The notes under the pieces are model-generated. The model was not told where the DNA came from. It was given only the letters and a program-made list of their open reading frames with translations, and made no database searches. Shown here piece after piece: positions 1,558 to 23,632 of a stretch of DNA of 23,632 bases. The DNA lies in NCBI GenBank assembly GCA_021432655.1, contig MU271346.1, forward strand, positions 62,001 to 85,632, written 5' to 3'. The translations under genes were made by a program, and so were the position numbers. This stretch comes from Atractiella rhizophila (Eukaryota). Every line of letters begins with the position of its first letter. Within the stretch, counting starts at the first letter, position 1.

Positions 1558-2058
1558 TCGATCGAGCCATGCCAGGAGGGCTTCATCGTTTCACGCCTCT
1601 TCTTTCGGGTTGGATGGGCTTTTTGCTTCCTCTGCATGATCATCATTCTATGTGGAAGGTTTTGAAGCACTTGAGTTGCATACGATTTTCAGTTGCATTG
1701 CTGTACGGTTGACGAATCGTTGTCAGAGTTGTTGTACATCACAATCTTTCATTTTGTTTCATAAGTTGAGCAAGGACCCCCACGTGATTTCAAGGAAGAT
1801 CTATTATGACAATTACATCTTACATGATACACAGGGATGATGTAATCATGATGCACTGCTCAGAACAAGATAAAATTAGTGCAAACATCTATTGGTAATA
1901 AGGTTAATGAATCAATTAAGTTAAGAAACCACTTAAGGTTACCAGAGCTTGGAAGAAGGCCACAGAACCACCAGCCACCAGCTCAAATTTCGTCGAAGTT
2001 GGCTGCTGCTCAGCCAGATAATCCACCACCTCTTACTCCCACCAACTTGCCAGGAAGC

Positions 2059-5000: not shown

Positions 5001-5569
5001 AGACGCTCCTCTCTGACGGTGCTCAAGCCGGGTTTAAACCAAGAGTTGCGATGGCTGTTCCACCAACTCCATCTTCTCACACATCTCCAATGACGCATCT
5101 TCAGCCTCCCCAATGTTCGTCACTGCAACCCCGTTATTCTTATTCCAACGAGGGCTTCCTTGAACTCTTGATTGAAGACATAGAAAATACCCAGGCGACC
5201 GGAGGATCGGTTCAAGCGTTCGAGTACGCGTTACAGTCTACGCCGTTCCAGCAACCCATTGAACTGGGAGGATCACAACCAGCCATGACAACTCCAGTGC
5301 CTGTCTCTGCGGCTCCGCTCCCACTATCGCACTATCCTCCTCAACAACAACTCACCATTGCTCAGCCTCAGATCCAGCCACCGTACACAGTCCCCTCAAA
5401 CTCATCTCAATTCTCGATGCAGCAGTTTCCGTCCCACCACAATCTCCCTCATGCTATACCTCTATCGAGACCACAAATGGAAACACCCTATGTACAGACA
5501 CCTATAGGATATCACCCGCCTCTACAGTACAAACAGGAACCTTCCCCTCATTATATGTCGAAATATTGA
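2059..5569 (+). CDS. Zn(II)2Cys6 (GAL4-type) transcription factor with fungal-specific middle domain and Q/P-rich C-terminus; many exons
   Basis: ATG at 2059. Joining exons 2059-2132, 2185-2196, 2261-2270, 2327-2351 and 2411-2471 gives CLECKRRKIRCDKANPCGSCIRRECPHLC, followed by coiled-coil-like ELQAITRRLEVVEKVL. Later exons include EPPMNINDD, KLHRPFL and YSKEQCIRSASIV. The last exon ends at TGA 5567-5569. Confidence 0.9.
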
Positions 5570-8480
5570 TAACTTCAGTATTTCAAACCCGCTGCATTTT
5601 CTTATGGGACATTTTGGTGACTGTTCCAAGTTTAGTACAGTCAGTTGTTGCAAATGTGGACGTTGGAGTCAAATGTTGCAGCATTATTGTGATCATTTTG
5701 TCCTTGCTTGTCGTCTCCCAATGAATTTGTCTTTGCACATGTTTCTTATGCCCTTTTAATGCTTCCGATTGACTTCGTGCCTTGTTATTATAAGCTGCTA
5801 TTAAAGCCAGTTTAATTGTTCAGGAATAATTTACGATAATGCATCACTTATTGATATCATCCTACTCCTTTTCTGCCAACTTGAATCCTAATATCCTAAT
5901 GTACAGTCTACATAACAAGGCGTACCACCATTCACACCAAACATCACAACAACCGATACTGCCTCGTTCACGGCTAACTTTAACTCGTCTTAGTCCCAAC
6001 GTCCCACGACCACCATGTTATCTCAGTCACACCAGATGTATTTACTTATCACTACTAATAAGAATCCGTGCGTTTTTGGCTCTATGAACGACAATGCAAT
6101 TACTACAAATACATCGCGCAATGCAAGTCAGAAGTCATGAAGGCTTTATGCCAATTTACAAAGCACAAAACGAATATGCAAACGGGTCCACAAAATGAAC
6201 TAACTCCATTCCTGATCCTACTTCTTTCCCACGAAAAAACTACCCTGCACATCAACTCCTTTTACGGCGAGACCACTTTTAGTAATTCCTTCGATTGCAA
6301 CTCTCACGTCCGCTTTCCCTTTGATCCCAGCTTGCGTGCCCTTTCCGAAAATCACTTTGCTGACGAAAGCCGCGGAAAATATCTCCTCGTCCTTCCAAGA
6401 CTTCCAGCGGAATGTCTTCGAGGTAAGTCCTCACCTCACTGACCAGCTTGCCATCTTCGTCGTATCGATGTGTCGTAGTAGCGGGGGCAAAATCCGGCGT
6501 TCGTAACCTTCCAAAGGCATTTTCGGGGGTGGGTTCTGGTGGGTACTTGTCGTTTGCACTCTTCTGTGGTGGCTCGCCATCATAGACATATATGTCTGGC
6601 CAGATGGCTGTGATGTCGGTTTGAGGTTCGAACGATTTGAGCGCAGCCGGGAGATTCAAGAAACCTTTGACCCAACCAGAAGCTCTGATCTCAGTCCCCG
6701 CTTTACCTAGAGACAACTTCATGTCCTCTATCTTGACATGCTCGAGAAGATGCAGCCGTTCTTGCGCGCCAGGGAAGTCATAACGCAGTTCTTGCCTCTT
6801 CAAGACGTCTACAACAAAATCTGGCGGGACATTCTTGCCGGGAGATCGCTTAGCTGAATCGTAACGGAAGACGACTTCATTCGGTTGGCGCCGGAGGTAG
6901 CGAGAGAGAAAGCGCGAGACGACGTTTTCGACTTCTTTGGAAGGTTCAATAGGCTCGACCCAACCACTGATGGTTAAATTGATTTCCTTTTGGGAGTTGT
7001 CAAATGTGAATGGAATGGTCGCTACACGGGCGAGGAGAAAATCTGGCACGCTGTGGCCGTCTACAGGAGGGATGGGGAAGTAGACCCCGAATGGGAACGT
7101 CCAAGGAACATCAAATCTGAGGATTGGAGGTTTCGAAGGAATGGTGGGAGATTCTTAGAGAAGGTTGTTGATGGGTGAAGCGGATTGAGGAGAATTCCGC
7201 GAGCGGTGAGGCTGATCAGTTTCTCTTTGATCGTCGAACTGTCTAATCCCAGCGATTGGAGTTGGGTATCCGTCCCCTTTGTGCTATTTACCATCTTGAA
7301 GTCGTAGGAAACCAGCCGGAGTAACGAAGCGGGCTCTGGAAGCGGTGGTAGTGCAGGAACTGTCGCATCCTTGCGTCAGTTACATGCTTCAGCACAGGAG
7401 AATGACGTGGGCAAGATGCGTATATTCATTTGCTTTTGATGATCATTAGTCAAAGAGGGCATGACACAGGCAAGACAAAACGATTAGAGTAACCTCATGA
7501 TTCAAGAAGTGTTCTCTTCTTTAAAGCGGTCAGGATCTTCTTTTTCCCTGCACCTGCTCTTTCCCTCGCTACTACAGAAAGGAAAGGCCCCTCACACCCC
7601 ACTCTGCCCAGGAAAGACGTACCTTCTCCTTTAACATCAATTCCCCATCCTTTCACCCCCAACTTCCATCCGCGAACCTTCACACCACCTTGCTTGCCCA
7701 CAACGCGACCTTTGAGATCCCCTCCTCCGCTCTTGACCAGCTCTACCACCTCTTCGATCGCTTCCTTCGCTCCCCTGCCCGTCGTGACCTCGACCCTCAA
7801 ATCAATGGACTGCTCTCGTCCAATCTCGATAGGCGGACAATCCAACACCTTGAGCGACGCCACTTCCTTTCCATCCGTTCCCTCTGACTGTCCCGAAAGA
7901 TAAACGGCGGCAGATAGATCGTATGCTTCCACCTCCGCCTTGCTTCCCTCCTCCCCAATGCCCGCTTTCAACGCTAGCCTGAACAGGAGGGGAAGCGAGT
8001 CTGAGCTGATACGCACTCCCACCCCTCGCACCAATACCTCCGCTCTACCCTTTCCTGCGCCTAATAACTCCAACGAGGATGAATCTGTCCATTGTACGTT
8101 CAGCGCTTCGGTAGGAGGTTTGAACATGAGCTGCCCGATTGAGAGGTGGAGGATGGGAATCAAGAGGATGAGAAACGAGAGGAAGAACAGAAGGGTTATC
8201 CGCATGGTCCATGCCAAGATCCTATGCTTCGACTGTCTCTTCTCTCCAGCCTCGACATCTCCTTCGTCATGACCCCTGACACCTTCACTCCTGGAGTCTC
8301 CGTGCAGCAGGGGAGTCTGCTCGTCGGCGTCTGGGAGTGCTGGAGAGTAGGAGGGAGAGAGTCCTGCGCTGGGAGTGCGCAATAAGGGTCCACGGCCGTG
8401 GGAGGGACGCTTGGGCTTGTGCGTTTGGAGCGAGGGAGGACGGGAGGACGCTGACGTTGAGGGGGCTGGGGAGTCGGTGG
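4088..8480. repeat. Segment C: source of the large inverted duplication (copy at 19176-23632)
   Basis: The reverse complement of 8471-8480 (CCACCGACTC) starts at 19176, and the window end (..CAGGAGCGCTGCAA) is the reverse complement of 4088-4101. Mirrored ORFs include the identical 172 aa ORFs 5051..5569 and 22151..22669. The left limit is set by the window end, not by a breakpoint. Confidence 0.98.
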
Positions 8481-8520
8481 GGGAGGAGGGAATGGCGAAC
8501 GGCGGGGGCGGGGAGGACAT
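6218..8520 (-). CDS. Single-pass type II membrane protein, Tag1-like (putative vacuolar); 2 exons; two apparent frameshifts in exon 2 of this copy
   Basis: Exon 1 is 8520-7623 (an in-frame upstream ATG exists at 8601), the phase-1 intron is 7622-7360 (GTACGT...CAG), and exon 2 is 7359-6218. It has a P/S-rich N-terminus, acidic dileucine motif DEQTPLL, one TM segment (ITLLFFLSFLILLIPILHLSI) and a luminal part with WPDIYVYDG...PENAFG...DIPLEVLEGR...FVSKVIFG. Relative to the right-hand copy there is a -1 near 7121 and a +1 near 6366. The family assignment is from recall of motifs, not a search. Confidence 0.7.
8461..8490 (+). other. Canonical G-quadruplex motif containing the duplication breakpoint
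   Basis: GGGGG-CT-GGGG-AGTCGGT-GGGGG-AGGA-GGG fits (G3+N1-7)3G3+. The breakpoint 8480/8481 falls in the third G tract. Confidence 0.6.
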
Positions 8521-8683
8521 GCTGCCAGTGTCTATGTCTGAGGGTCGTAACTGGAGCGGTAGATGGTGGTCGTCGTTATCACTTTGCAGCAAGCAGGGCA
8601 TCCGAAATAGGGGTTGCTGTTCTTTCTCTTCGATCGACGATCACTTTGTTGCTTCAAGACTTCAACTTGTCACTTGGCCTTAG

Positions 8684-9082
8684 AGCGTGCTGTCTTGGAA
8701 GAATGCAAGAACGGGGAGAGGAGCAGTGAAAGAGAAGTAGTATGACCCAGCATGGACAATGCATGAGATGTCGGAGTCCACGCAACAGTTCGTCTTTTTT
8801 CTGCAATCAAGGAACGGGAACGAGCGATTAGCTCTCTATAAGCGTTTTGTTGCAAAAGAGATATTCAAGGTAGATAATTCAGCACCCACCGCTTCTCCAC
8901 ATTGGTACGGGTCGCAATTTGTCCAATTTGTCTCCTTGCCTTTGCTTCCTCTGAGGTGACATGATGACAATGGCGTGGAACAATGCTTCGCCTGTCAAAA
9001 GAGCAGAGAAGATGTATTTGATAGGATGAGGTCTATGTACCATTCACAGTTGAAATGCTTGAATGCTGCTTTTTTGGGCTGA
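8684..9082 (+). pseudogene. Degenerate 3' fragment of an unknown gene (second copy at 17535-17902, minus strand)
   Basis: The frame ...YDPAWTMHEMSESTQQFVFFLQ...ASPHW is followed by an intron-like GTACGG...AG and then HDDNGVEQCFACQKSR...NAAFLG*. There is an in-frame TAG at 8738, and a TGA at 8957-8959 where the other copy has TGG. No family recognised. Confidence 0.35.
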
Positions 9083-10356
9083 GAATACATTCTTTTCGTC
9101 CCCGCTGAGGTCTGTGGATTGAGAACATCCTCCAGCTCTTGTGCCCCAGAACTCTCCTTAACAAAAAAAACGCTTCTTGAAAATAATCTAACCAAAAGAA
9201 TAAACATCCCTGAACTCTGGCCCGCATTGAATTTGCACTTATTAAATCGAGCATTTCTGATAAACTGCTCACGAGTACGGATTCTCGCAGGTGCGTCTTG
9301 CCTCTCAGTTAAGGCTGGGGATAGGTTCAAACTTTCCTCTATTCATCGGCTCTCGTGTATTTGTAAGACATGCAGAGATCACGCAGTCTTTTTGTACTCT
9401 TTCGCCTTGTTACCCCTGCATTTCCCCTGTTGATAGTTCGATTGTCAAGTGTCAAGTGCTTCGTTATCCGCGCTGCCTCAGTCCAGCTGGCAAGCTTCTT
9501 TGAAACTTTTTGATGAGCAAGAATTTACAGAACTCTCCGGTTGCCGTGGATCGACCTCACGCCTAGGAACGTAACGTTGAGACTGACGCAGTTCTCTGAA
9601 TAATACGAAATTGAAGGAGTGACACCACATCCTAAAGCAACCGCAGGAAGTGGTATAAATTGGATGGTCTGGTATAAGCTACCCTCAGAATTGTCTAATA
9701 GTTCCCGACAATGAAGCTTTACGCTTTTTACCTGCTGGCTGCTGTTACCTCTGCCGCTCTTCTCCTTCCATGCAAGGGTTACGGTCATGAAGTGACGTGG
9801 GAAGGTACGTCAAATGGTTCGTCCACCCGCCCGCTTTGCCCATTTCCATTTCTGATTCACATGCCGCTTAGGCAATATGAAGACAATAAACGGAGTTCCA
9901 CCTGCGTTAATTTGCACAAGGGGGGGGGGGTTCAATCCGAGGAAAGAAGCGCTCATATACCTCACCGGTGTTTTTGGACTCCCTCATGTGAATAACAAGC
10001 TCCTCGCGTGCAATTTTTGGGTACTATTTCGACGTGTTTGCCCCAGATTATCTCAACGGTGATACTGTTCCCTTTTCGGGACTCAATGATCCTAACGTCT
10101 ATTACATTTTTGCAGTTTTGCAAGCTAGTGAGAGCTGATACGGATGGTGGCAGGCAAACGACTTCTTGAACCTTTGGCGGACCAATCATAACCCTTCCTA
10201 TCCTCCTCAATCTCATTGAAGGTCTCCAGCAAAATTGGATACAAGCGCTTTCTCACGACTGGATATTGTTTCGGAGGTTAGAGGTTCTCTCCCGTTCTCT
10301 ACTTCTTTTCATCGAATTGCTTCCAGGTCTGTATGCCCTCAAACTGGCTCAGCGAA
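8712..10356. repeat. Segment A, duplicated in inverted orientation at 16265-17902
   Basis: CGGGGAGAGGAGCAGTG at 8712 matches the reverse complement ending at 17902, and AAACTGGCTCAGCGAA ending at 10356 matches the reverse complement starting at 16265. Similarity is continuous between them, about 90% by eye. Confidence 0.95.
9654..9660 (+). promoter_or_regulatory. Putative TATA box of the dienelactone hydrolase pseudogene
   Basis: TATAAAT about 50 nt upstream of ATG 9711, also retained in the inverted copy. Confidence 0.45.
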
Positions 10357-10783
10357 ATATGGCCTCTGTCTCAACTTTGCGCACACACCAGTTTGAATTG
10401 CCAGATGATTTCGAGGTAATCCGCAAGAAATCGCATGTCCCAATCCAAGTTAACAGGTTAGGTTGCATACTAAATGAGGCTTACAGCTAACGACGGGCGT
10501 CATTCAGTGCCGAATTTGATGACTACTTCAATCTCACGAGTCAGGCGTTGGTGGACGATATAATGCATGGATACAAAGCTGGCTACAACAGAACCTTCTT
10601 CGCTGGAGTGGGGCATGGTTTCGCTGTTCGAGCTGACCTTGTGGGTGGGGGCCTTGCATTGATAGATGGTTGAGTCTGAGAGAACAAATTAGTCTAATCC
10701 AGGAGAAGGCGGCAAAGGAGGGAGCGTTCTTCGACGCTGTTTGCTTTCCATTACTCTCATTCCAATGGCTGACAATGATTTAG
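9711..10783 (+). pseudogene. Dienelactone hydrolase family (alpha/beta hydrolase) pseudogene with N-terminal signal peptide
   Basis: Exon pieces read MKLYAFYLLAAVTSAALLLPCKG..HEVTWE|GNMKTINGV..EALIYLTGVFGLPHVNNKLLA, FDVFAPDYLNGDTVP, TTGYCFG|G (nucleophile motif, ~10255-10277), LPDDFE..VPIQVN|SAEFD, FAGVGHGFAVRADL (catalytic His) and KAAKEGAF. Introns include 9805-9871, 10457-10507 and 10641-10692. Frameshifts near 10020, 10190, 10232 and 10701 are needed to join the pieces. Confidence 0.85.
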
Positions 10784-11046
10784 CTGGAATGGTTAAGGAG
10801 GTAGCGACATCTGATCTTAACAATGATAATATACTCTTGCATGTCTGGTTGTTAATAAGTCGAAATGCTATTGCCAGTTTGTTATTGCCAGATTGATACA
10901 AATCGGTCCAAACATTCTCGCGGAAATCCTACTTCTGGCAGCCATGACCCGAGGTACATTCAGCCTCATCTCATACAATGTGGATTGTGGATAGTAGGAG
11001 AACGGCAGCGTCCGATTCAAACACTACTCCATAGTCTCTAAGCAGC

Positions 11047-11123
11047 TGAGTAATCAAGGGTTGACGAATGGCACTGAAGTATGGCATCATTTGGATTCGA
11101 GATTTTTCATCCGGCGTATAAAA
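11047..11123 (+). promoter_or_regulatory. Peroxiredoxin promoter: Yap1-response-element-like site and TATA box
   Basis: TGAGTAA at 11047-11053 (reverse complement TTACTCA, a known YRE variant) and TATAAAA at 11117-11123, about 95 nt upstream of ATG 11217. Confidence 0.5.
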
Positions 11124-11216
11124 GCACTCGAGCTGGCGTCCTCTGCCAAGTTCCATCCATCTGCATCCATCGACGATCAATCTGCGCTTCTCCAGTCATT
11201 GAAATTTATTCGCAAA

Positions 11217-12046
11217 ATGCCTTCTCTTCGCTTGGGATACAAAGCCCCCGACTTCGAAGCTGAGACCACCCAAGGTCCCATCAAGTTTTACGAGTTTTTC
11301 GAGAACAACTCGAAATGGGTCATCCTCTTCTCTCACCCCGCGTAAGTTTGCATTCATTGGGAAGAATGGGCCATGGCTAACGCTTCGTGTTATAGCGATT
11401 TCACCCCCGTGTGCACTACGGAATTGGGCGAGGTGGCGAGGATCCAGCCAGAATTCGAGAAGAGAGGAGTAAAGGTTATTGGCCTTAGCTGCAACGAGTT
11501 GAAGAGCCACGAGGAGTGGATTTCTGAGTGTGTATTTCTCCTACATTCTGTGATTGAAATCCTTCGCTGAAACACACTATCAATGCAGCATCAACGAACT
11601 TTCAAACGTCACCCTTAGCTTCCCCATCATAGCCGACCCCGATCGTAAGGTTGCTACGACCTATGACATGCTTGATGCTTTGGACGCCACAAACGTTGAT
11701 GCTAAAGGTGAGCTCGTTTTCGTTATCTCGGGTCGCGAACCAACTGACTAATATATTTTGCGCAGGAATCCCCTTCACTGTCCGCTCTGTCTTCATCATC
11801 GATCCCACCCACACTATTCGTACGATGCTCACCTACCCCGCATCAACGGGCCGTCAATTCGACGAGATTCTGAGGATCGTTGATTCCCTCCAGACGGGAG
11901 ACAAATATAAAGTCACCACGCCTGCTAACTGGCGCCCTGGGGACAAGGTCATCGTTCACCCTTCGATTAAGACGGAGGACGCCCACAAGATCTTCGAAAA
12001 GGGAGTGGATGTGAAGAAGCCTTATTTGAGGTTTACTCAGGTCTAA
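11217..12046 (+). CDS. PRX1: 1-Cys peroxiredoxin (Prx6 subfamily), 4 exons
   Basis: MPSLRLGYKAPDFEAETTQGPI...WVILFSHPA|DFTPVCTTELG...FPIIADPDRKVA...GIPFTVRSVFIIDP...TYPASTGRQFDEILR...TPANWRPGDKV...KPYLRFTQV*. PVCTTE is the Prx6 active-site signature. No obvious mitochondrial presequence. Confidence 0.97.
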
Positions 12047-12295
12047 ACATTTTCGGACCGAAGTACAAGGTCTCTTTTGTTTCTAAGAATTCTGTTGTGC
12101 CATTCCGATTGTGTGCAAGTAGGAGCTGTGAATTATATGGTAATGTCATGAATTTATAGATGCACTTGTAGCTGCACCCGCTGCGGGTATACGTCACATC
12201 GATTCAGGGTATCGCACACACTGAAGCAGACTCTGAGAAGAGTTTGGATAAATTGACAACGGCCCAATAAATTTTATGAGTGAGATGATGTACGG

Positions 12296-13495
12296 TTATC
12301 GACTCGAAAACAAGCTATCTAAAGCAGCTGAAAGTTGAACCAGAAGGTACTTCTCCTTCTTCTTCTTCTCAACAGGAGCAGTTTTACTAGGCTTCCACTC
12401 TGGGATTTCGCCAACAATGGCGTCGTGTATCATCTTCGCAGAAGCCGAGTAGCGAAGCGACCACCCCTCCTTCTCCTTCTCCCCTTTTGGCCCCTGACGC
12501 AAACCGCGTCGAAGATCGGCGTTGCTCCGCAACCATATTGAGGCAATTCTATCCAAGGGGTGTTCGAGAGGTGCAAAGTGGAACGGCGATGGTACATACC
12601 TGCTGTCCTCCGACTTAGTGTGGATCTCGACCTTAATTGGATCGAGGTAAGCAAATTGCTCTAGGATGGTCGCTTCCGTCTCAAGGTCTGAAATGCCATC
12701 AACAACCAAATTCCGAGTCCATGGATCGTCGAGGGGGAACAGGTTGCCGCGGATGAACAGCTTGAAGGGAAAACTGTCTTGATGGCGTGAAACGAAGGCA
12801 TAGACGGTCGCCAAAACCTGGAAGGATTCCCACTCAATCAAAAACTGGGGTCGACTCGGATCATTCCTCTTCTTCCTGTTAAAGCGGCCAGGCAACATCA
12901 ATTCCAAAGGCCCCTTGACGCAAAAAACTAAGTGAGAAACGGACACAATGATATACCGTGTATTTCTTCGATGCCGGAATCCAGACTTTGTGTTCCAGAA
13001 GCGCTCCTTGAAATAGTCAATGAAGTCCTCATTTGACCCTGTGTAGCTTTTCGATGGTTCCACGCCGGTCACGTATCCTTTGGTTTCACTTATTGGGACG
13101 AATCCAACCCGGCGGTCCGTGAAAGTTGATGGAATAGCAGGAGTTGGTTTGTGGACAATCGGTGGGATTCTACGTTTATCTGTGCGGGAGGCAGAAGTGG
13201 CAGACTGCGTCGCTTCGGAGTCCGGGGCTGGGTCAGATAGAAGTTCCACAATTTCTGGTGGTAATGTAGACAGATTCCGTCGTGAATGAAAACGATATGG
13301 TGTACGAGAGAATGCTCTTGGTATCTCGGAAGTAAGCGTTGGTTTATGGGTAGAATCTATCAAGAATGAGCGACAGAAACGAGACAGCGAGGTCGGTGAT
13401 TTGCGTTTAGCCAATGACTTGGCAAAGTAGGAGGTGAGTTGAGCGGTGTAAGAGACTGATGCTGCCGCATTCATAGCTAGCATTCCGTGCATCAT
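12296..13495 (-). CDS. Uncharacterised protein, possibly with a mitochondrial presequence and degenerate RRM-like domains
   Basis: Long open frame; first ATG at 13495, alternative at 13474. The N-terminus is R/K/S-rich and acid-poor. Two probable in-frame introns: 12956-12876 and 12599-12549. RNLVVDGISDLETEATILEQFAY...IASIWL resembles an RRM pattern (inference). Confidence 0.65.
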   Translation of the reverse strand: MMHGMLAMNAAASVSYTAQLTSYFAKSLAKRKSPTSLSRFCRSFLIDSTHKPTLTSEIPRAFSRTPYRFHSRRNLSTLPPEIVELLSDPAPDSEATQSATSASRTDKRRIPPIVHKPTPAIPSTFTDRRVGFVPISETKGYVTGVEPSKSYTGSNEDFIDYFKERFWNTKSGFRHRRNTRYIIVSVSHLVFCVKGPLELMLPGRFNRKKRNDPSRPQFLIEWESFQVLATVYAFVSRHQDSFPFKLFIRGNLFPLDDPWTRNLVVDGISDLETEATILEQFAYLDPIKVEIHTKSEDSRYVPSPFHFAPLEHPLDRIASIWLRSNADLRRGLRQGPKGEKEKEGWSLRYSASAKMIHDAIVGEIPEWKPSKTAPVEKKKKEKYLLVQLSAALDSLFSSR

Positions 13496-13776
13496 CAGTT
13501 GAATATGCACCTTCAGCCGCTGAATCCACGAACCGTTCTTCACGAAACCTGAGCAATTATGCCACTGCACTGGAAAAGGTTATCTGCAAGCTATCAAATT
13601 GCGGTCAGTATTACGGCGTGAAACGCTCAATGCCCCGAACTTGGGAAAGTCCTTGTTCTGGACGGAGCCGAGTGGTCGGACTTGAACTTTTGAAACGCGA
13701 TCTCAAAAGCAAAGCGCGACCTGGCTCAGAAGACCATAAGAGCATCATTCCTCCCCTACACAGCATTCAGCAGCCC

Positions 13777-15094
13777 ATGGTGCCCTCTCGAACCCCCTCC
13801 CTCCTCGGCTTCGGCCGTGGCCAACCCATCCCGCAAGCACGCACGCCACCCATGCCTTCCACAGCTAACCCTCCTCCTTCCAAAGGAGGCACCCACCCAC
13901 TCAAGCACTCCTGGTCCATATCGTTCCTCTTCCGCTCAACTTCGAAACTTGACTCAGATTGGTCCGGAGCGCTACGACACCTCGGCTCGTTCGGGTCCAT
14001 CGAGAGCTTCTGGCTACTCTTCTCTCACCTCTCCAGGCCGTCAATGCTCCCTTCGATATCCGACATCCATATATTTCAAAGCTCTATACGTCCTGTCTGG
14101 GAAGATCCAGCTAATGCGAGTGGAGGGAAGTTCCTGATCCGGCTAAAGAAAGGAGTGGAGGATAGGGTGTGGGAAGAGGTTGCCATGGCTTTGGTAGGGG
14201 AGATGCTGGTCGCCGACGCAATAGACGGAGAGGAAGATGATGGAGACGGAGCGGTTGTTTGTGGGATAGTGATGAGCGTAAGGAGCAACGAATGCGTGCT
14301 CAGTGTGTGGAATAAAGACAAGGACGACAAGAAGGGGAGGGAAAGGATCAGGTTTGTATTCTCACGCATCTTATTTGTATGGGGTTGTTCCTTGTCCCAA
14401 AATGGTATAGCCCTTCAAGTCAATTCTGCAAGCGAAATATGTTGGGAGTGTGTGATGACCGTTCACAATTTATTGTTCCTGTCCTGTCAAGGTTACAGCC
14501 ATCAGATGATTTTCGTTCACTATGGGATCAGATCACATTTGGCGCTCAGTTGTTGGCGCGGAAAATCGATCTCTAAGCCTTAGTAAGGCGCTTGCCAAGG
14601 AAGTATATCGAAGAACCTTCACCTGTCTTATTCATGCTCCTTGGGCGAGTCTACTGACGGTCTGATCCGTGGGAACTATCCAAGTAGAAAGCTTTCAAAG
14701 CAATCTACTCAAATTATGGAATAATGGGCTGATAAATGGTGACAGGAGCGGCATCCTTAAAGTTCTTCATCGCCTATGGCGTCCTCCAGCAGGTATCACG
14801 GCAACAGAACCGCCAGCAAACTTCGTCTCGGTCGAATACAAGCCTCACCCTCTTCCCTCCGCCACTCCACAACCAATCACACCTTCGACATTGACGTTTG
14901 CCAATCTAGAAGAGCGGGGTAACGAGCGAAGCGAAGGATATTTCGAAAACAGGCCCTCTCGTGGGCGGGGTAGGAGAAGGGAGGGGAGTGAGGTTGAGGT
15001 TCATGGAGGGGAGGGAAGGGATTGGGCGGGAAAAGGAGGAGGTCGATCTTGGGGAATGGGCAGAAAGGAGAGCCAAAGAGAGATCGTGGAATGA
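13777..15094 (+). CDS. eIF4E-family cap-binding protein, class II (4EHP/nCBP)-like; 2 exons
   Basis: HPLKHSW...SIESFW...IRPVWEDPANASGGKFLIRLKKG..DRVWEE...VCGIVMSVR...LSVWNK. Intron 14352-14745 (GTTTGT...GACAG) joins ERIR to SGILKVL...VEYKPH, followed by an R/G-rich tail. The start could also be the ATG at 13852. Confidence 0.92.
14452..14676 (+). ncRNA. Candidate structured intronic RNA (snoRNA-like or regulatory fold); unclassified
   Basis: Lies within a 394 nt intron. Box C-like GTGATGA at 14452-14458 and CTGA at 14654 and 14662. The long stem 14515-14534 pairs with 14659-14676, and the inner stem 14580-14601 pairs with 14638-14657. No rRNA guide recognised. Confidence 0.3.
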
Positions 15095-15104
15095 GCACAT
15101 GTCC

Positions 15105-16000
15105 AGTGGTTAATGGAGCATCCATGTTGTTATCCTGCCCAACGATCGTATCTGCGCTGGTAGAATTTTGTAGAAGCGCCTGAATGTCCCTCTAACCGAG
15201 TCATGAGAAGAGAAATGATGAAGGGGAATTGCGTATTTCCTGTGAGAGTTGATAGAACCGCCATACAAACTAGACGGAGGAACGACGCACGCAAAGCTTG
15301 CATGGGAATATTGTTGACATCTGCCCCTTTGGCAACTAACCATTTCGTCGTGCTTTCCCAAGGACGATCTCCACCCCCTGCTGATCCCCCCCTCTCAATT
15401 CAACATCCAACATCAGATCACGATTGGGAGCGTTCCTCAAGGCACGCTTGTGAGCTTCGAGACGCTCTGTTCTTCAGTGGTAATGGAGACTTCGGACCGT
15501 TCATCTCGTCGCTTCCCCAAGATCTCCACCGACCAATCCGCGAAGCATTCTGAATTCTCGCAACGTCTTTCGTGACGCAACAAAGATGTCTGCAAGAAAG
15601 CGAAACGTGGAAATATTTGAACTGGAAGTCCACATCAAGAACCTCCAGAGTGGTTGACTAAGGGAGGTAGCGCATGTCTAAGTAGAGCGCACCGGGTACC
15701 ATGCCCAACTTCAGACGGGAGGGGTGCAGAAGCGAGGAGAGGGAAAAGACGAGCATGAGTTGTCGAAAAATCTATACCAGATTTCGACAGTGTTCAGTGT
15801 CGCGGAAAAGGGAGAAATGAAAGAGCAAATATCCGCCAGATCGGTGACCGATGGGGAAGCGACTGAGATGTGGAAGGTTTGCGTAAGCTCGTCAGGTTTG
15901 GAGCGATCGAAGGCGAGGCGAGGAGAGAAATGGACCCAAACTCGGGATTTCGAAGCTTGAGAGATCGCAGAATCGCTGATTATGAAAGGCGAGTCGTAGC
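15105..16000. repeat. Segment B, directly repeated at 17904-18804
   Basis: Both copies start AGTGGTTAATGGAGCATCC and end GGCGAGTCGTAGC. They are roughly 90-95% similar by eye and differ by a micro-inversion at 15476-15511. Confidence 0.95.
15270..16000 (-). pseudogene. Truncated copy of a degenerate LRR/F-box-like gene
   Basis: Homologous to 18069-18804, broken by frameshifts and the micro-inversion, and cut off at 16000. Confidence 0.45.
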
Positions 16001-16264
16001 CCTTGACAAAATCGTGCGCCTCCTCCTTTCGCCACTTGCGCACTTGCGCGTTTCCACTTTCGTCGAGCGTGTTCTGGAACTGTGGCAACTTCTCTTTTGC
16101 CACAGGGATCTTAGCTATAAAAGCCTTTCACCTGCAAGTGCGAGACTCACACTTATTTGTTATCTCGCACTTTGCAGGTAATGTAGTTCCCTTACATACT
16201 AAATGCAACACACACACTTATTTGTTATCTCGCACTTTGCAGCGCTCGCACATTTGTCAAACCA
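16001..16264. repeat. Junction segment X with hairpins, a 30 bp direct repeat and a reiterated CGCACTT(T)GC motif
   Basis: 9 bp stem CTGTGGCAA/TTGCCACAG (16080-16105); 16 bp inverted repeat 16130-16145/16163-16179; identical 30-mer at 16148-16177 and 16213-16242. Confidence 0.85.
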
Positions 16265-16911
16265 TTCGCTGAGCCAGTTTGACGGCATACAGACTTGAAA
16301 GCAACTCGAGACTCGGATGAAATGAAGTAGAGAGCGAGAGAGAACCTCTAACCTCCGAAATATATCCAGTCGTGAGAAAGCGCTTGTATCCAGTTCGCTG
16401 GAGACCTTCAATGAAATTGAGTAGGATAGGGTCACTGCTTCCGTATGATTGGGCCGCCAAAGGTTCAAGAAGTCGTTTGACTGCCACCCTCCGTATCAGC
16501 TCTCACTGGCTTGCACTGCAGAAAATACAATAGACATTAGGATCGTTGAGTCCTGAAAAGGAAACAGGATCACCGTTGAGATAATCAGGGGCAAACACGT
16601 CGAAATAATACCCAAAAATTGCACGCGAGGAGCTTGTGATTCACATGAGGGAGTCCAAAAACAGCGGTGAGGTATATGAGCGCTTCTTTCCTTGGATTCA
16701 ACCCCCCCTTGTGCAAATTAACGCAGGTGGAACTCCGTTTATTGTCTTCATAGTGCCTAAGCGGCGCGTGAATCAGAAATGTGCAAAGCGGACGGATGGA
16801 CGAACCATTTGATGTACCTTCCCACGTCACTTCATGACCGCAACCCTTGCATGGAAGGAGAAGAGCGGCAGAGGTAAGAGCAGCCAGCAGGTAAAAAGCG
16901 CAGAGCTTTAT
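16265..16911 (-). pseudogene. 3'-truncated second copy of the dienelactone hydrolase pseudogene
   Basis: The start codon is ATA (16911-16909), the G-run is 7 nt versus 11 nt, the GYCFG codons are disrupted (GGATATATTTCG), and the copy ends after KLAQR at 16265. Confidence 0.85.
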
Positions 16912-17902
16912 TGTCGGGAACTATTAGAAAATTTTGAGGTAGCTTATACCGGACCATCCAATTTATACCACTTCCTGCGGTTGCTTTAGTATGTGGTGCA
17001 CTCCTTCAATTTCGTATTAGTCAGAGAACTGCGTCAGTCTCAACGTTACGTTCTAGGCGTGAGGTCGATCCATGGCAACCGGAGAGTTCTGTAAATGCTT
17101 GCTCAGCAAAAAGCTTCAAAGAACCTTGCCAGCGGGGCTGAGGCAGCGCGGAAAGCGAAGCACCTGACAATCGAACTATCAACAGGGGAAATGCAGGGGT
17201 AACAAGGCGAAACAGTACAAAAAGACTGCGTGATCTCTGTACGTCTTGCAAATACACGAGAGCCGGTGAATAGAGGAAAGTTTGATGAACACCTATCCCC
17301 TGCCTGAACTCGGGAGGCAAGACGCACCTGCGAGAATCCGTGCTCGTGAGGTGTTTATCAGAAATGCTCGATTTAATAAGTGCAAATTCAATGCGGGCCA
17401 GAGTCCAGGGATGATTATTCTTTTGGTTAGGTTATTTTCAAGAAGCTTTTTTTTGTTAAGGAGAGTTCTGGGGCACAAGAGCTGGAGGATGTTCTCAATC
17501 CACAGACTTCAGCGGGGATGAAAAGAATGTATTCTCAGCCCAAAAAAGCAGCATTCAAGCATTTCAACTGTGGATGGTACATAGACCTCGTCCTATCAAA
17601 TACATCTCTTCTGCTCTTTTGACAGGCGAAGCATTGTTCCACGCCATTGTAATCATGCCACCTAGGAAGCAGAGGCAAGGAGATAAATTGGATAAATTGC
17701 GACCTGTACCAATGTGGAGAAGCGGTGGATGCTGAATTATCTACCTTGAATATCTCTTTTGCAACGAAACGCTTATAGAGAGCTAATCGCTCGTTCCCGT
17801 TCCTTTCTTGCAGAAAAAAGACGAACTGTTGCGTGGACTCCGACATCTCATGCATTGTCCATGCTGGGTCATACTACTTCTCTTTCACTGCTCCTCTCCC
17901 CG
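16265..17902 (-). repeat. Inverted copy of segment A (8712-10356)
   Basis: Mirrored ORFs, e.g. 8759..8959(+) vs 17535..17855(-) and 9119..9433(+) vs 17293..17478(-); end matches read directly. Confidence 0.95.
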
Positions 17903-17903
17903 A

Positions 17904-18804
17904 AGTGGTTAATGGAGCATCCATGTTGTTATCCTGCCCAACGATCGTATCTGCGCTGGTAGAATTTTGCAGAAGCGCCTGAATGTCCCTCTAACCGAGT
18001 CATGAGAATAGAAATGATAAAGAGGAATTGCGTATTTCCTGTGAGAGTTGATAGAACCGCCATACAAACTAGACAGAGGAACGACGCACGCAAAGCTTGC
18101 ATGGGAATACAATGTTGACATCTGCCCCTTTGGCAACTAACCATTTCCTCGTGCTTTCCCAAGGAAGGTCTCCACCCCCTGCTGATCCCCCTCCTCTCAA
18201 TTCAACATCCAACAGAAGATCACGAATGGGAGCGTTCCTCAAGGCACGCTTCTGAGCTTCGAGACGCTCTGTTCTTCCGACGAGATGAACGGTCTGAAGT
18301 CGCTCCATTACCAATGCTTCCCCAAGATCTCCACCGACCAATCCGCGAGGCATTCTGAATTCTCGCAACGTCTTTCGTGACACAACAAAGATGTCTGCAA
18401 GAAAGCGAAACGTGGCAATATTGGAACTGGAAGTCCACATCGAGAACCTCCAGAGTGGTTGACCAAGGGAGGTAGCGCATGTCTAAGTAGAGCGCAGCGG
18501 GTACCATGCCCAACTTCAGACGGGAGCGGTGCAGAAGCGAGGAGAGGGAAAAAACGAGCAATGAGTTGTCGAAAAATCTATACCAGATTTCGACCGTGTT
18601 CAGTGTCGCGGAAAAGGAAGAAATGAAAGAGCAAATATCCGCCAGATCGGTGACTGATGGGGGAGCGACTGAGATGTGGAAAGTATGCGTAAGCTCGTCA
18701 GGTTTGGAGCGATCGAAGGCGAGGTGAGGAGAAATGGACCCAAACTCGGGATTTCGAAGCTTGAGAGGTCGCAGAATCGCTGATTATGGAGGGCGAGTCG
18801 TAGC
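17904..18804. repeat. Second copy of segment B
   Basis: Begins one nucleotide (A17903) after the end of the inverted A copy and continues into unique sequence 18805-19060. Confidence 0.95.
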
Positions 18805-19060
18805 TCTCGTATGTCGCGTCCCTTGCTCTTGAGAATGTGTTCAAGCTGCTTCTTGAGCAGCATTGTCGCTTTTTCTCGGAAGACTAAGGGGCTTGCCTTC
18901 TATTGAAACCAGTGGAGCTCTTGCTGTGAAGCATCCTCCCAATTGCTAGATACATCTTTATGAAACCGGAAGATGTCGATGCTAATCGTTCGCACGAAAA
19001 GTATCAGTGAGGACGGGCAGAGCGTCGGATGTAACCAGCCACACGTTTCAGAAGCAGAAG
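18069..19060 (-). pseudogene. Degenerate leucine-rich (F-box/LRR-like) gene, 5' end replaced by the telomere tract
   Basis: Overlapping minus-strand pieces in different frames carry LxxLxL-type patterns: GRDIRELRL, APNLTSLRI, SATLNTVEI, STTLEVLDVD, SRKTLREFRM and MERLQTVHL. There is an in-frame TAG near 18900 and an intron-like GTGTGG...TTAG at ~19045-18982. The family is inferred only. Confidence 0.5.
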
Positions 19061-19101
<41 letters not shown>

Positions 19102-19174
19102 GGTTAGGGTTAGGGTTAGGGTTAGGGTTAGGGTTAGGGTTAGGGTTAGGGTTAGGGTTAGGGTTAGGGTTAGG
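19061..19174 (+). repeat. Interstitial telomeric repeat (TTAGGG)3 TTTAGGG (TTAGGG)14 TTAGG
   Basis: Read directly: 114 bp with the G-rich strand on +, i.e. oriented as a cap for the sequence to its left. Confidence 0.99.
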
Positions 19175-19175
19175 A

Positions 19176-21507
19176 CCACCGACTCCCCAGCCCCCTCAAC
19201 GTCAGCGTCCTCCCGTCCTCCCTCGCTCCAAACGCACAAGCCCAAGCGTCCCTCCCACGGCCGTGGACCCTTATTGCGCACTCCCAGCGCAGGACTCTCT
19301 CCCTCCTACTCTCCAGCACTCCCAGACGCCGACGAACAGACTCCCCTGCTGCACGGAGACTCCACGAGTGAAGGTGTCAGGGGTCATGACGAAGGAGATG
19401 TCGAGGCTGGAGAGAAGAGACAGTCGAAGCATAGGATCTTGGCATGGACCATGCGGATAACCCTTCTGTTCTTCCTCTCGTTTCTCATCCTCTTGATTCC
19501 CATCCTCCACCTCTCAATCGGGCAGCTCATGTTCAAACCTCCTACCGAAGCGCTGAACGTACAATGGACAGATTCATCCTCGTTGGAGTTATTAGGCGCA
19601 GGAAAGGGTAGAGCGGAGGTATTGGTGCGAGGGGTGGGAGTGCGTATCAGCTCAGACTCGCTTCCCCTCCTGTTCAGGCTAGCGTTGAAAGCGGGCATTG
19701 GGGAGGAGGGAAGCAAGGCGGAGGTGGAAGCATACGATCTATCTGCCGCCGTTTATCTTTCGGGACAGTCAGAGGGAACGGATGGAAAGGAAGTGGCGTC
19801 GCTCAAGGTGTTGGATTGTCCGCCTATCGAGATTGGACGAGAGCAGTCCATTGATTTGAGGGTCGAGGTCACGACGGGCAGGGGAGCGAAGGAAGCGATC
19901 GAAGAGGTGGTAGAGCTGGTCAAGAGCGGAGGAGGGGATCTCAAAGGTCGCGTTGTGGGCAAGCAAGGTGGTGTGAAGGTTCGCGGATGGAAGTTGGGGG
20001 TGAAAGGATGGGGAATTGATGTTAAAGGAGAAGGTACGTCTTTCCTGGGCAGAGTGGGGTGTGAGGGGCCTTTCCTTTCTGTAGTAGCGAGGGAAAGAGC
20101 AGGTGCAGGGAAAAAGAAGATCCTGACCGCTTTAAAGAAGAGAACACTTCTTGAATCATGAGGTTACTCTAATCGTTTTGTCTTGCCTGTGTCGTGCCGT
20201 CTGTGACTAATGGCCAACAAAAGCAAATGAATACACACATCTTTCCCACGTCATTCTCCTGTTTCGGTTCAGAAGAATTGGCATAGACGTAGTCTTGTTT
20301 ATGAAGCAGAGAATTTCCTCGCACCTGGATTGCTGAAGAATGTAACTGACGCAAAGATGCGACAGTTCCTGCACTACCACCACTTCCAGAGCCCGCTTCG
20401 TTACTCCGGCTGGTTTCCTACGACTTCAAGATGGTAAATAGCACAAAGGGGACGGATACCCAACTCCAAACGTTGGGATTAGGCAGTTCGATGATCAAAG
20501 AGAAACTGATCAGCCTCACCGCTCGCGGAATTCTCCTCAATCCGCTTCACCCATCAACAACCTTCTCTAAGAATCTCCCACCATTCCTTCGAAACCTCCA
20601 ATCCCTTAGATTTGATGTTCCTTGGACGTTCCCATTCGGGGTCTACTTCCCCATCCCTCCTGTAGACGGCCACAGCGTGCCAGATTTTCTCCTCGCCCGT
20701 GTAGCGACCATCCCATTCACATTTGACAACTCCCAAAAGGAAATCAATTTAACCATCAGTGGTTGGGTCGAGCCTATCGAACCTTCCAAAGAAGTCGAAA
20801 ACGTCGTCTCGCGCTTTCTCTCTCGCTACCTCCGGCGCCAACCGAATGAAGTCGTCTTCCGTTACGATTCAGCTAAGCGATCTCCCGGCAAGAATGTCCC
20901 GCCAGATTTTGTTGTAGACGTCTTGAAGAGGCAAGAACTGCGTTATGACTTCCCTGGCGCGCAAGAACGGCTGCATCTTCTCGAGCATGTCAAGATAGAG
21001 GACATGAAGTTGTCCCTAGGGAAAGCGGGGACTGAGATCAGAGCTTCTGGTTGGGTCAAAGGTTTCTTGAATCTCCCGGCTGCGCTCAAATCGTTCGAAC
21101 CTCAAACCGACATCACAGCCATCTGGCCAGACATATATGTCTATGATGGCGAGCCACCACAGAAGAGTGCAAACGACAAGTACCCACCAGAACCCACCCC
21201 CGAAAATGCCTTTGGAAGGTTACGAACGCCGGATTTTGCCCCCGCTACTACGACACATCGATACGACGAAGATGGCAAGCTGGTCAGTGAGGTGAGGACT
21301 TACCTCGAAGACATTCCGCTGGAAGTCTTGGAAGGACGAGGAGATATTTTCCGCGGCTTCGTCAGCAAAGTGATTTTCGGAAAGGGGACGCAAGCTGGGA
21401 TCAAAGGGAAAGCGGACGTGAGAGTTGCAATCGAAGGAATTACTAAAAGTGGTCTCGCCGTAAAAGGAGTTGATGTGCAGGGTAGTTTTTTCGTGGGAAA
21501 GAAGTAG
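19176..21507 (+). CDS. Second copy of the Tag1-like membrane protein gene, lacking promoter, start codon and first ~13 codons; in frame with the telomere tract
   Basis: Exon 1 remainder 19176-20033, intron 20034-20365, and exon 2 20366-21507 uninterrupted (VPALPPLPEPASLLRLVSYDFKMVNST...GSFFVGKK*). The first in-frame ATG is at 19451. Confidence 0.7.
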
Positions 21508-22150
21508 GATCAGGAATGGAGTTAGTTCATTTTGTGGACCGTTTGCATATTCGTTTTGTGCTTTGTAAATTGGCATAAAGCCTTCATGACTTCTGACTTG
21601 CATTGCGCGATGTATTTGTAGTAATTGCATTGTCGTTCATAGAGCCAAAACGCACGGATTCTTATTAGTAGTGATAAGTAATACATCTGGTGTGACTGAG
21701 ATAACAGTGGTTGTGGGATGTTGGGACTAAGACGAGTTAAAGTTAGCCTTGAACGAGGCAGTATCGGTTGTTGTGCTGTTTGGTGTGAATGGTGGCACGC
21801 CTTGTTATGTAGACTGTACATTAGGATATTAGGATTCAAGTTGGCAGAAAAGGAGTAGGATGATATCAATAAGTGATGCATTATCGTAAATTATTCCTGA
21901 ACAATTAAACTGGCTTTAATAGCAGCTTATAATAACAAGGCACTAAGTCAATCAGAAGCATTAAAAGGGCATAAGAAACATGTGCAAAGACAAATTCATT
22001 GGGAGACGACAAGCAAGGACAAAATGATCACAATAATGCTGCAACATTTGACTCCAACGTCCACATTTGCAACAACTGACTGTACTAAACTTGGAACAGT
22101 CACCAAAATGTCCCATAAGAAAATGCAGCGGGTTTGAAATACTGAAGTTA

Positions 22151-23632
22151 TCAATATTTCGACATATAATGAGGGGAAGGTTCCTGTTTGTACTGTAGAG
22201 GCGGGTGATATCCTATAGGTGTCTGTACATAGGGTGTTTCCATTTGTGGTCTCGATAGAGGTATAGCATGAGGGAGATTGTGGTGGGACGGAAACTGCTG
22301 CATCGAGAATTGAGATGAGTTTGAGGGGACTGTGTACGGTGGCTGGATCTGAGGCTGAGCAATTGTGAGTTGTTGTTGAGGAGGATAGTGCGATAGTGGG
22401 AGCGGAGCCGCAGAGACAGGCACTGGAGTTGTCATGGCTGGTTGTGATCCTCCCAGTTCAATGGGTTGCTGGAACGGCGTAGACTGTAACGCGTACTCGA
22501 ACGCTTGAACCGATCCTCCGGTCGCCTGGGTATTTTCTATGTCTTCAATCAAGAGTTCAAGGAAGCCCTCGTTGGAATAAGAATAACGGGGTTGCAGTGA
22601 CGAACATTGAGGAGGCTGGAGATGCGTCATGGGAGATGTGTGAGAAGATGGAGTTGGTGGAACAGCCATGGCGACTCTTGGTTTAAACCCTGCTTGAGCA
22701 CCGTCAGAGAGGAGCGTCTCAAGACGCCCAGCTACGGATTGTAGGACCTAAAGGGTATCAATTCTGGCCGGGACTCAAAGATGAAGGACACAAGAACAAA
22801 CCTGCACAAAAGAGTTGTAGCTGTTGCGGTTTGTTTTGTTATCCGTATCCTCTGAAGAAGATCAGTTGTCATCCAAGTCCACGCGTAATGGTTTACTTAC
22901 CATTACTCTTGACCTGCACACCGTCTAGTAACAGTTTGACTGCTGTGGCGGCTTGCCTGACCAAATGATTAAGGTTATGCCCTGGAATACGGTCTGGTAC
23001 AAAGATGTTCTGTGCGAGAAGAAGGGTCCTCCTTTTCTCTTCGATTATGGACTGTGCGGCGCCTTTCTCAATTGATTCGAAGATATCTGCAAAGAGGACA
23101 ATGGTTGCGGCGAAAGCATGGTGATAAACGTGCCTTTCCGTCTTTGAGTGACGCTCTGTCGCAGTGTTGAAAGCCTTACCAGACATGAGACAGTGTTTCT
23201 GCGTTAAAGATCAGTTCGCAGGAGGATGGGTAGCACAGACGGACTGACCGCGAAGTTCAAAGACGGAGCGGACGACAATACTGGCCGAACGGATGCACTG
23301 TTCCTTAGAATATCCATGTTCTCTTCGAGATGCTTTGAGGAACAAAAAGGGTCGATGGAGCTTCATCAATCGGTAGTGTATCTAATAAGCCTCACTATGA
23401 GACCACGGCTCTGGCGTATATCAGGAAGAAGAGAGACCATGTCTTGAGATCCATCTAAAACGCCTGTCAACGTGCAGTCTTAAATCAGTAATGAAGAACG
23501 TACATTTATGCCAATGAAATACAGGAGATTGGTTCGTTGGTTGAGGGCGGGTGAATTCATCCGGAAGGTGGCTCAACATGTCCTGATATTGCTGTGTTCA
23601 GCCCACATTCAATTAGTACAGGAGCGCTGCAA
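22151..23632 (-). CDS. Second copy of the Zn2Cys6 transcription factor, 3' exons only (rest outside window)
   Basis: Mirror of 4088-5569. The last-exon 172 aa ORF is identical at protein level and HVYHHAFAATIVLFADIF is retained. Confidence 0.88.

Follow-up and report, generated by a model that had tools for sequence, protein, structure and literature searches.

Inverted duplications of chromosome arms can arise from breakage-fusion-bridge events. In telomere-DSB fusions, an uncapped telomere is joined to an internal double-strand break (DSB) by end joining, according to the excerpted text of PMC4656829 and PMC8266670; for the clones analysed with the yeast assay of PMC8266670, the same excerpts report a loss of the telomere instead of a fusion. 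Short interstitial telomeric sequences are described in extracts of PMC2246262 and PMC7215372 as insertions that arose during DSB repair in primates, rodents and horse, with telomerase acting at the break as the presumed source of the tracts. Here, we analyse a TTAGGG tract in a stretch of 23,632 nt from the fungus Atractiella rhizophila (contig MU271346.1 of assembly GCA_021432655.1), which we call the window. In this window, the tract is joined to an inverted copy of genes that lie further to the left. Judged by its letters, the joint appears to be a further case of a known phenomenon, the fusion of a telomere to a break, and the interpretation of an earlier note on this DNA is partly supported.

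The tract covers positions 19061–19174, where Tandem Repeats Finder reports a single array (19060–19174, period 6, 19.0 copies, 98% matches). The TTAGGG register begins at 19061 and includes one TTTAGGG variant, whose extra T is position 19079; the perfect period-6 run that follows (19080–19174) is exactly 95 nt long. When searching the whole window for TTAGGGTTAGGG with at most one mismatch, we found 17 matches, all on the plus strand, compared to a mean of 0.06 matches in shuffled controls (0 of 100 shuffles reached 17). A CCCTAA tract was found nowhere in the window, which bears out the earlier note on this point.

The tract is followed by a single A (19175), and from 19176 to the window end at 23632 the sequence is the reverse complement of 8480..4088, as seen by alignment and with blastn. 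Sequence and alignment thus confirm the layout of the earlier note, namely a 114 bp TTAGGG tract, a single A and the reverse complement of 8480 leftwards. At base 19175, the telomere register predicts a G and the source flank would give a C, whereas an A is present. The joint hence has zero microhomology and one filler base, and the claim that the tract shares no microhomology with the source flank also stands. The partner at the joint is internal, non-telomeric sequence that begins 40 nt inside the coding sequence of a minus-strand gene. We thus find a one-sided tract with the 3′ end of its G-strand at the joint and an internal partner without microhomology, as in telomere-to-break fusions. 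On these letters, the form of the joint is that of a chromosome-end telomere ligated to an internal break, which is supported in kind. A search for the joint in metagenome contigs gave 0 matches.

The break at 8480/8481 falls within a GGGGG run (8479–8483). This run starts a 40-nt stretch (8479–8520) with four runs of at least three G on the plus strand, which may be a candidate fragile, quadruplex-prone site.

To describe the surroundings of the joint, we divided the window into segments. From left to right, these are A, x, B, a single-copy centre, C, a repeat element, B′, an orphan A, C′, 253 nt of unique sequence, the tract, a second orphan A and A′:

4088–8480: arm A, the source of the inverted segment, with a plus-strand gene (~4000–5900) and most of a minus-strand Tag1-like gene; pairs with 19176–23632
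8481–8711: segment x, 231 nt, present in the left arm only; contains the first 13 codons of the Tag1-like gene, including its start codon, and the G-rich run
8712–10356: arm B, with an inverted copy at 16265–17902 (alignment, blastn)
10357–15104: single-copy centre, with genes for a 1-Cys peroxiredoxin and eIF4E and an unnamed minus-strand gene
15105–16003: segment C, which covers most of a small gene on the minus strand that belongs to no known family, with a direct copy at 17904–18807
16004–16259: high-copy dispersed repeat of 256 nt, resembling a miniature inverted-repeat transposable element (MITE-like), with 7-nt terminal inverted repeats
16265–17902: arm B′, the inverted copy of 8712–10356 (alignment, blastn)
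17903, plus strand: orphan A at the joint of B′ and C′, which fits neither 8711 nor 15104
17904–18807: C′, the copy of 15105–16003 without the repeat element
18808–19060: unique subtelomeric sequence, 253 nt
19061–19174, plus strand (G-strand): TTAGGG tract, found by tandem-repeat and motif searches
19175, plus strand: orphan A at the joint of telomere and A′, from the base-level reading of the joint
19176–23632: arm A′, the inverted copy of 8480..4088, whose last 95 nt (23538–23632) are identical to 4182..4088

The earlier note had missed two of these pairs, that is, the second inverted pair (8712–10356 and 16265–17902), which lies to the left of the tract, and the direct pair (15105–16003 and 17904–18807). 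Together, they show that the tract ends a copy of a chromosome terminus (17904–19174, 1,271 nt) that is placed between the collinear arms B′ and A′. Judged by its counterpart C, this terminus copy starts 13 nt after the eIF4E stop codon, and it ends with the telomere. B′ and A′ preserve the order and orientation of a mirror-imaged A-x-B, in which only x (231 nt) has been swapped, for 1,273 nt. The tract is thus accompanied by 1,157 nt that comprise the gene copy and the subtelomere, at the cost of 231 nt. The two joints of the block are alike, as each lacks microhomology and carries one orphan A (17903 and 19175) that matches neither partner. Local alignments of x with 17903–19060 and with the 1.27-kb block, and of 18805–19060 with the rest of the window, scored 15–26, which is at chance level. 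The simple fusion of a chromosome end to a broken homologous arm, as proposed earlier, is not supported by this arrangement.

When comparing the locus to telomere-DSB fusions, we find a one-sided tract, a G-strand that runs into the joint, an internal non-telomeric partner and no microhomology in common, with one filler base here. In contrast to these fusions, the telomere here sits on a terminal fragment of 1.27 kb whose other end is ligated as well, which results in an insertion and not in a dicentric chromosome; furthermore, the case in the window is from a fungus and is old (5–6% divergence). Similarly to the short interstitial telomeric sequences, a TTAGGG tract is found at a repaired break whose flanks are contiguous in the copy without the tract. 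A telomerase-made tract would stand alone between otherwise contiguous sequences, whereas here 1,157 nt of subtelomere and gene copy are attached and 231 nt are deleted. Since the tract arrives with these 1,157 nt, it was captured and not synthesised by telomerase. With breakage-fusion-bridge products, the locus shares inverted chromosome-end genes and a telomere in an illegitimate joint. However, the arms of such products meet at a fold-back or sister-fusion joint with a short spacer at most, whereas the arms here are non-identical, form no fold-back joint and have 10.7 kb and a telomere between them (the distance between the A arms is 10,695 nt). Of the telomere-to-broken-end fusion suggested by the earlier note, the kind of joint is therefore upheld by the one-sided tract, the outward G-strand and the single filler base, but not its classification as a breakage-fusion-bridge product.

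If the joint is real, it provides a clean natural case, in a little-studied fungal lineage, of a chromosome taking up, by ligation, a telomere that was handled like any broken end. Its two joints would be readable at base level, with an unrearranged copy alongside for comparison. It would furthermore illustrate how ends are reshuffled in a heterozygous fungus, by fragment capture, gene loss from a duplicate copy and probably healing by means of a new telomere.

With moderate confidence, we favour the reading that this is a real telomere-to-break joint of the end-joining kind, situated in a rearranged second copy of the chromosome end that the assembler strung head to head with the first. The right 7.4 kb of the window (16260–23632) would then represent this same chromosome end a second time, in rearranged form and as the reverse complement; this second copy may be a paralogue or the other haplotype. 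In this second copy, a DSB would have occurred in the G-rich 5′ end of the Tag1-like gene, where 231 nt would have been lost and a free terminal fragment of 1,271 nt would have been captured in inverted orientation. The captured fragment would comprise most of the small gene, the 253 nt of subtelomere and a full telomere. Both of its ends would have been ligated without microhomology and with one extra A each, a pattern that would be the mark of non-homologous end joining. At its telomere, the fragment would have been uncapped and treated as a break, and the tract would have been interstitial ever since. The normal end would thus read A-x-B-centre-C-element-terminus, and the rearranged end would read A2, inverted terminal block, B2, ~130 nt and a new telomere. 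The left 16.2 kb, representing the normal end, and the second copy were probably threaded via the 256-nt repeat element by an assembler with K = 96. Such an assembler would have crossed the telomere repeat by the shortest path, so that the 114-nt length and the mirror layout would stem from the graph path. From the shared form of both joints of the block, we infer a single capture event, and the link made through the repeat element is probably false.

Several observations support this reading. The arms B′ and A′ are collinear with only x replaced (231 nt by 1,273 nt), and the inserted block is terminus-like, as it consists of a gene copy, unique sequence and a telomere that has a variant repeat at its base and its G-strand outward. 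In addition, divergence is similar in B/B′, C/C′ and the diverged blocks of A/A′, and public contigs link the right end of the element to terminus-like sequence and a B′-type arm to a telomere. These last two points are considered in turn.

The global alignment of A and A′ (4,469 columns) contains 90 substitutions (54 transitions and 36 transversions) and 12 indel events, among them an extra piece of 69 nt in A′ at ~20263–20331, within an intron. The divergence between A and A′ is a mosaic of diverged and near-identical blocks (coordinates in A):

4183–5110 (928 nt): 58 substitutions
7119–7462 (344 nt): 17 substitutions and the 69-nt indel
5111–7118 (2,008 nt): 13 substitutions
7463–8480 (1,018 nt): 2 substitutions; includes 162 nt of intron with zero differences

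B and B′ are 91.8% identical according to blastn, with 89 substitutions and 51 gap columns in 1,667 columns (5.5% substitutions), and C and C′ are 93.5% identical, with 45 substitutions and 21 gap columns in 912 columns (5% substitutions). Because the diverged blocks of A/A′ match these values, the three pairs can share one age. The near-identical blocks of A/A′ would fit later gene conversion or a common ancestry of haplotype segments. The difference of ~5–6% in the unconverted blocks means that the event is not recent, which also speaks against the simple fusion pictured earlier; for the non-identical copies, the earlier note had named either a homologous partner or an event that is not recent. 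A fresh fusion to a sister chromatid is excluded by the divergence of the copies.

In a unipath graph, neighbouring unipaths overlap by K−1. In ALLPATHS-LG, perfect repeats that reach at least size K are glued in the graph, and K is 96, as stated in the part of PMC3483556 drawn on here. In the window, two lengths are exactly 95 nt: the perfect repeat run (19080–19174) and the identical run from the last A/A′ difference (4183) to the window end. A path that enters the telomere loop after the extra T and leaves it at TTAGG/A yields 95 nt, as this is the shortest run of at least K−1 with remainder 5 modulo 6. Similarly, a branch that carries a variant ends K−1 nt after that variant, which yields a terminal identical run of 95 nt. 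Both lengths are hence fixed at K−1, one at a glued repeat and one after a variant, as expected for De Bruijn or unipath artefacts, and they resemble the repeat gluing of ALLPATHS-LG. The contig thus looks like the path of a K = 96 graph assembler, and the window is probably the last part of its contig, which ends 4,457 nt past the tract. Since a graph contig contains only words that are present in the reads, the ~96 words specific to the joint, and hence the joint, are probably real DNA; in contrast, a graph path would not guarantee the true length of the tract or the long-range order across repeats. The assembler join that the earlier note had offered as its main alternative therefore holds for the signs of a graph path (both lengths of 95 nt and the doubtful mirror layout), but an artificial joint between telomere and A′ is disfavoured by the presumably read-derived words. 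More generally, the length of internal telomere tracts in graph assemblies can be set by K−1, and the order of the flanks needs checking before such tracts are read as fusions or palindromes. Among the papers listed for Atractiella rhizophila and its genome, none is a genome report judged by its title, and the genome data are acknowledged as unpublished in the extract of PMC13347111.

To compare the window with independent data, contigs of four public runs were used. Two of these (X1 and X2), both from a single sample, resemble DNA and contain 0.68 and 0.61 of the sampled words, and the other two (X3 and X4) show GT..AG skips and thus behave like RNA. The comparison masked positions 19048–19181 as repeat and hence covers the window outside the joint of telomere and A′. 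Word depth does not equal copy number, and comparable contigs range from 58 to 358 within one run, so that two copies of A are not distinguishable by depth from three or four. Bins with low or zero cover in A and A′ (e.g. zero at 5965–6619) are likewise no guide, as contigs fitting two places were assigned to one only.

The repeat at 16004–16259 reaches summed word depths of 10,253 and 4,636 in X1 and X2 compared to ~200 around it, that is, ~20–50 times its surroundings. Many different loose ends are found at both of its borders (16003/16004 and 16259/16260), and the right arm B′ adjoins the border at 16259/16260. In the window, the left flank of the repeat ends with GCCCT and the right flank starts with AACCA, so that there is no target duplication; these unmatched flanks make the large mirror layout doubtful. 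In X1 and X2 (two of the four runs, one sample), the right end of the element is instead followed by GCCCT and then by sequence like that from 18808 onward (joint of 16259 to 18830). By its letters, this link resembles the target duplication that the element would leave on inserting simply between C and the terminus sequence. The repeat also contains an internal direct repeat of 42 nt (16136–16177 and 16201–16242), and a transcript contig of the neighbouring gene extends 36 nt into it.

A TTA that is shared between unique sequence and repeat is the usual form of telomerase seeding. One contig of 599 nt in X2 (one of the four runs) matches B′ at 16261–16731 with 2 differences and 1 indel, continues for 80 nt like 10404–10483 and passes at ...CTTA into GGGTTAGGG repeats, with the TTA common to the unique sequence and the repeat. 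This contig probably represents a chromosome end that was healed at the shared TTA, on an arm that matches B′ rather than B. The likeness to chromosome healing concerns this X2 contig and not the tract at 19061, as the joint at 19175 has the wrong strand for healing.

The sample is heterozygous, as the letters of the window and different ones co-occur in X1 and X2, both in the centre and in B (e.g. at 12182, where one X1 contig agrees with the window and another does not). At five of the nine listed sites in B, letters were found that match neither B nor B′, which implies at least four B-like sequences in a heterozygous sample. Such a number of copies beyond two would fit two loci in two haplotypes. 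At position 7808 in A and 19848 in A′, both window copies carry G (C on the plus strand in A′), whereas an A is found in the contigs of all four runs that were placed on arm A. This means either that the assembled strain is unlike all four runs or that both copies have been homogenised. In X1 and X2, contigs also connect 9248 with 15928, both on the same strand, through 38 other letters and with 46 letters on the shorter side; this link is explained by none of the readings considered here.

There are also points that weigh against the capture of a terminal fragment in a second chromosome end. No listed public contig bridges the joint, whose surroundings (19048–19181) are masked, and the link from 16259 to 18830 has 30 letters on its shorter side and was detected at 90% likeness. 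The contig that passes from a B′-type arm into a telomere differs from B′ by 2 substitutions and 1 indel and could thus be a third locus, and the public sample may differ from the assembled strain (at 7808, A in four of four runs and G in both window copies). The identity of the assembler was deduced from two numbers of 95 nt, and if the perfect run is truly 95 nt long, the length of the tract is no artefact. Lastly, although the repeat has dozens of copies, a false path through it would have had to land on a paralogue of the same region; such a coincidence favours a real link of C, element and B′.

The last point leads to the rival reading that the window is one real molecule, which we consider unlikely. 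Here, a terminal inverted duplication of the inv-dup kind would consist of A-x-B, a single-copy centre of 5.9 kb and B′-block-A′; x′ would later have been replaced by a captured telomere-bearing fragment, and the chromosome would continue as a mirror of its own proximal part. This reading benefits from the unlikelihood of a chance mis-thread onto a paralogue of the same region, and every local adjacency in a graph contig stems from reads. Furthermore, the right arm starts exactly at the end of the element (16259/16260), which could mark a transposase-made break, and a contig end K−1 past the last difference would also suit a long perfect inverted repeat. However, the element has no target duplication in the window, whereas public contigs hold both the duplication and terminus-like sequence, and the public B′-type arm passes the arm boundary into a telomere. 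A mirror image toward a second centromere would moreover be unstable, and arms that differ by 5–6% would require an old palindrome that was stably inherited. We regard it as quite improbable that a Pucciniomycotina fungus stably inherits such a terminal palindrome, with a full-length telomere inside one arm and the right arm starting at the end of a small transposon. If it were true, the locus would preserve a natural record of how a chromosome end broke, was mirrored through a transposase-made break and received a new cap, with the captured telomere as the scar.

A heterozygous terminal inversion is very unlikely in our view. It posits that the last 10.7 kb (8481 to the telomere) were flipped in one haplotype after a break at 8480/8481, so that the telomere was ligated to the centromere-side break end, and that the assembler merged the shared 10.7 kb of both haplotypes into one path. 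The path would then run through A, the shared segment and the mirror image of the A of the other haplotype. No false adjacency is required by this account, which also explains the heterozygous centre and B as well as the end of the contig at the point from which A′ and A are identical; the form of the joint would be the same telomere-to-break ligation. Against this, the break at 8480 would lie by chance only 231 nt from the older B′ boundary (8712), and the orphan A in common with the joint of B′ and C′ would also be due to chance. In addition, the contig with the target duplication of the element and the telomere-ending B′-type arm would be unexplained, and no contig with a new telomere at 8481 is among those listed, from which telomere-like records may have been filtered.

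We give little credence to a pure artefact, in which 1..19174 would be a true chromosome end, A′ would be the other haplotype of A and no molecule would join the tract to A′, the joint having come from chimeric library molecules or an assembler patch. Compared to the lengths typical of native fungal telomeres, the tract has the length and the variant-repeat base of such a telomere. The contig ends as little as 4,457 nt after the tract, the sample is heterozygous and the region of the joint is masked in the comparison with public contigs, all of which would suit an artefact. However, a K = 96 path would demand ~96 consecutive joint-specific words, that is, overlapping reads over ~190 nt. Furthermore, a chance chimera would not set A′ beside B′ collinearly with the same one-A joint as between B′ and C′.

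The remaining candidates were rejected: healing of a break at A′ by telomerase, as A′ is joined to the C-strand side of the tract and the strand is thus wrong; telomere-primed reverse transcription or a Penelope-like element, as a gene follows the tract in sense orientation, starting from its 5′ end and together with its intron and neighbouring genes; microhomology-mediated copying primed by the telomere 3′ end, as there is no complementarity to 8481 onward; and a missed-adapter palindromic read or the joint of a mate-pair circle, whose geometry would place a telomere opposite its own complement or produce a direct joint, and which the two 95-nt signatures of graph assembly also disfavour.

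Lastly, we analysed the genes in the window. A Pfam scan of 28 open frames resulted in four frames with a match, two of which are above the curated cut-off. The genes of the centre have introns, as seen in spliced public contigs, and encode for instance the 1-Cys peroxiredoxin (PF10417, E 9.4e-12) and eIF4E (PF01652, E 2.8e-41), whose stop codon lies 13 nt before 15105. The eIF4E product is by eye identical to an NCBI protein of Atractiella rhizophila over the first exon up to the intron, and tblastn gives 97% and 85% for two pieces that cross intron borders.

The Tag1-like gene in A is encoded on the minus strand, with its ATG at 8520, a first exon down to 7625 and an intron of 265 nt (7360–7624, GT..AG) that is supported by spliced contigs in X3 and X4. 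Its product starts with MSSPPPP. The assignment to Tag1_C is weak, with an E of 0.0013 on the copy in A′ that is below the Pfam cut-off. This A′ copy has no promoter, no start codon and lacks the first 40 nt of coding sequence (13 codons). A third and more distant Tag1-like paralogue of the same species (protein P0015, outside the window) is encoded on a contig of 8,542 nt and has an intact N-terminus; its identity is 62% to exon 1 and 92% to part of exon 2. Tag1-like genes thus form a small gene family.

At ~7120 in A, one base is absent that is present in A′ (20604) and in several contigs of the runs, where contigs with the extra base make up the full depth in X1 and, at 183 of 417 and 84 of 209, part of the depth in X2 and X4, respectively. 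The missing base divides the frame in A into 7061–7375 and 6279–7154, and A′ has one frame of 385 codons (20350–21507). Either the gene in A is frameshifted or there is a small intron at this position. In the small minus-strand gene in C, an X4 contig reveals an intron at 15192–15301 with GC..AG ends on its own strand (CT..GC on the plus strand).

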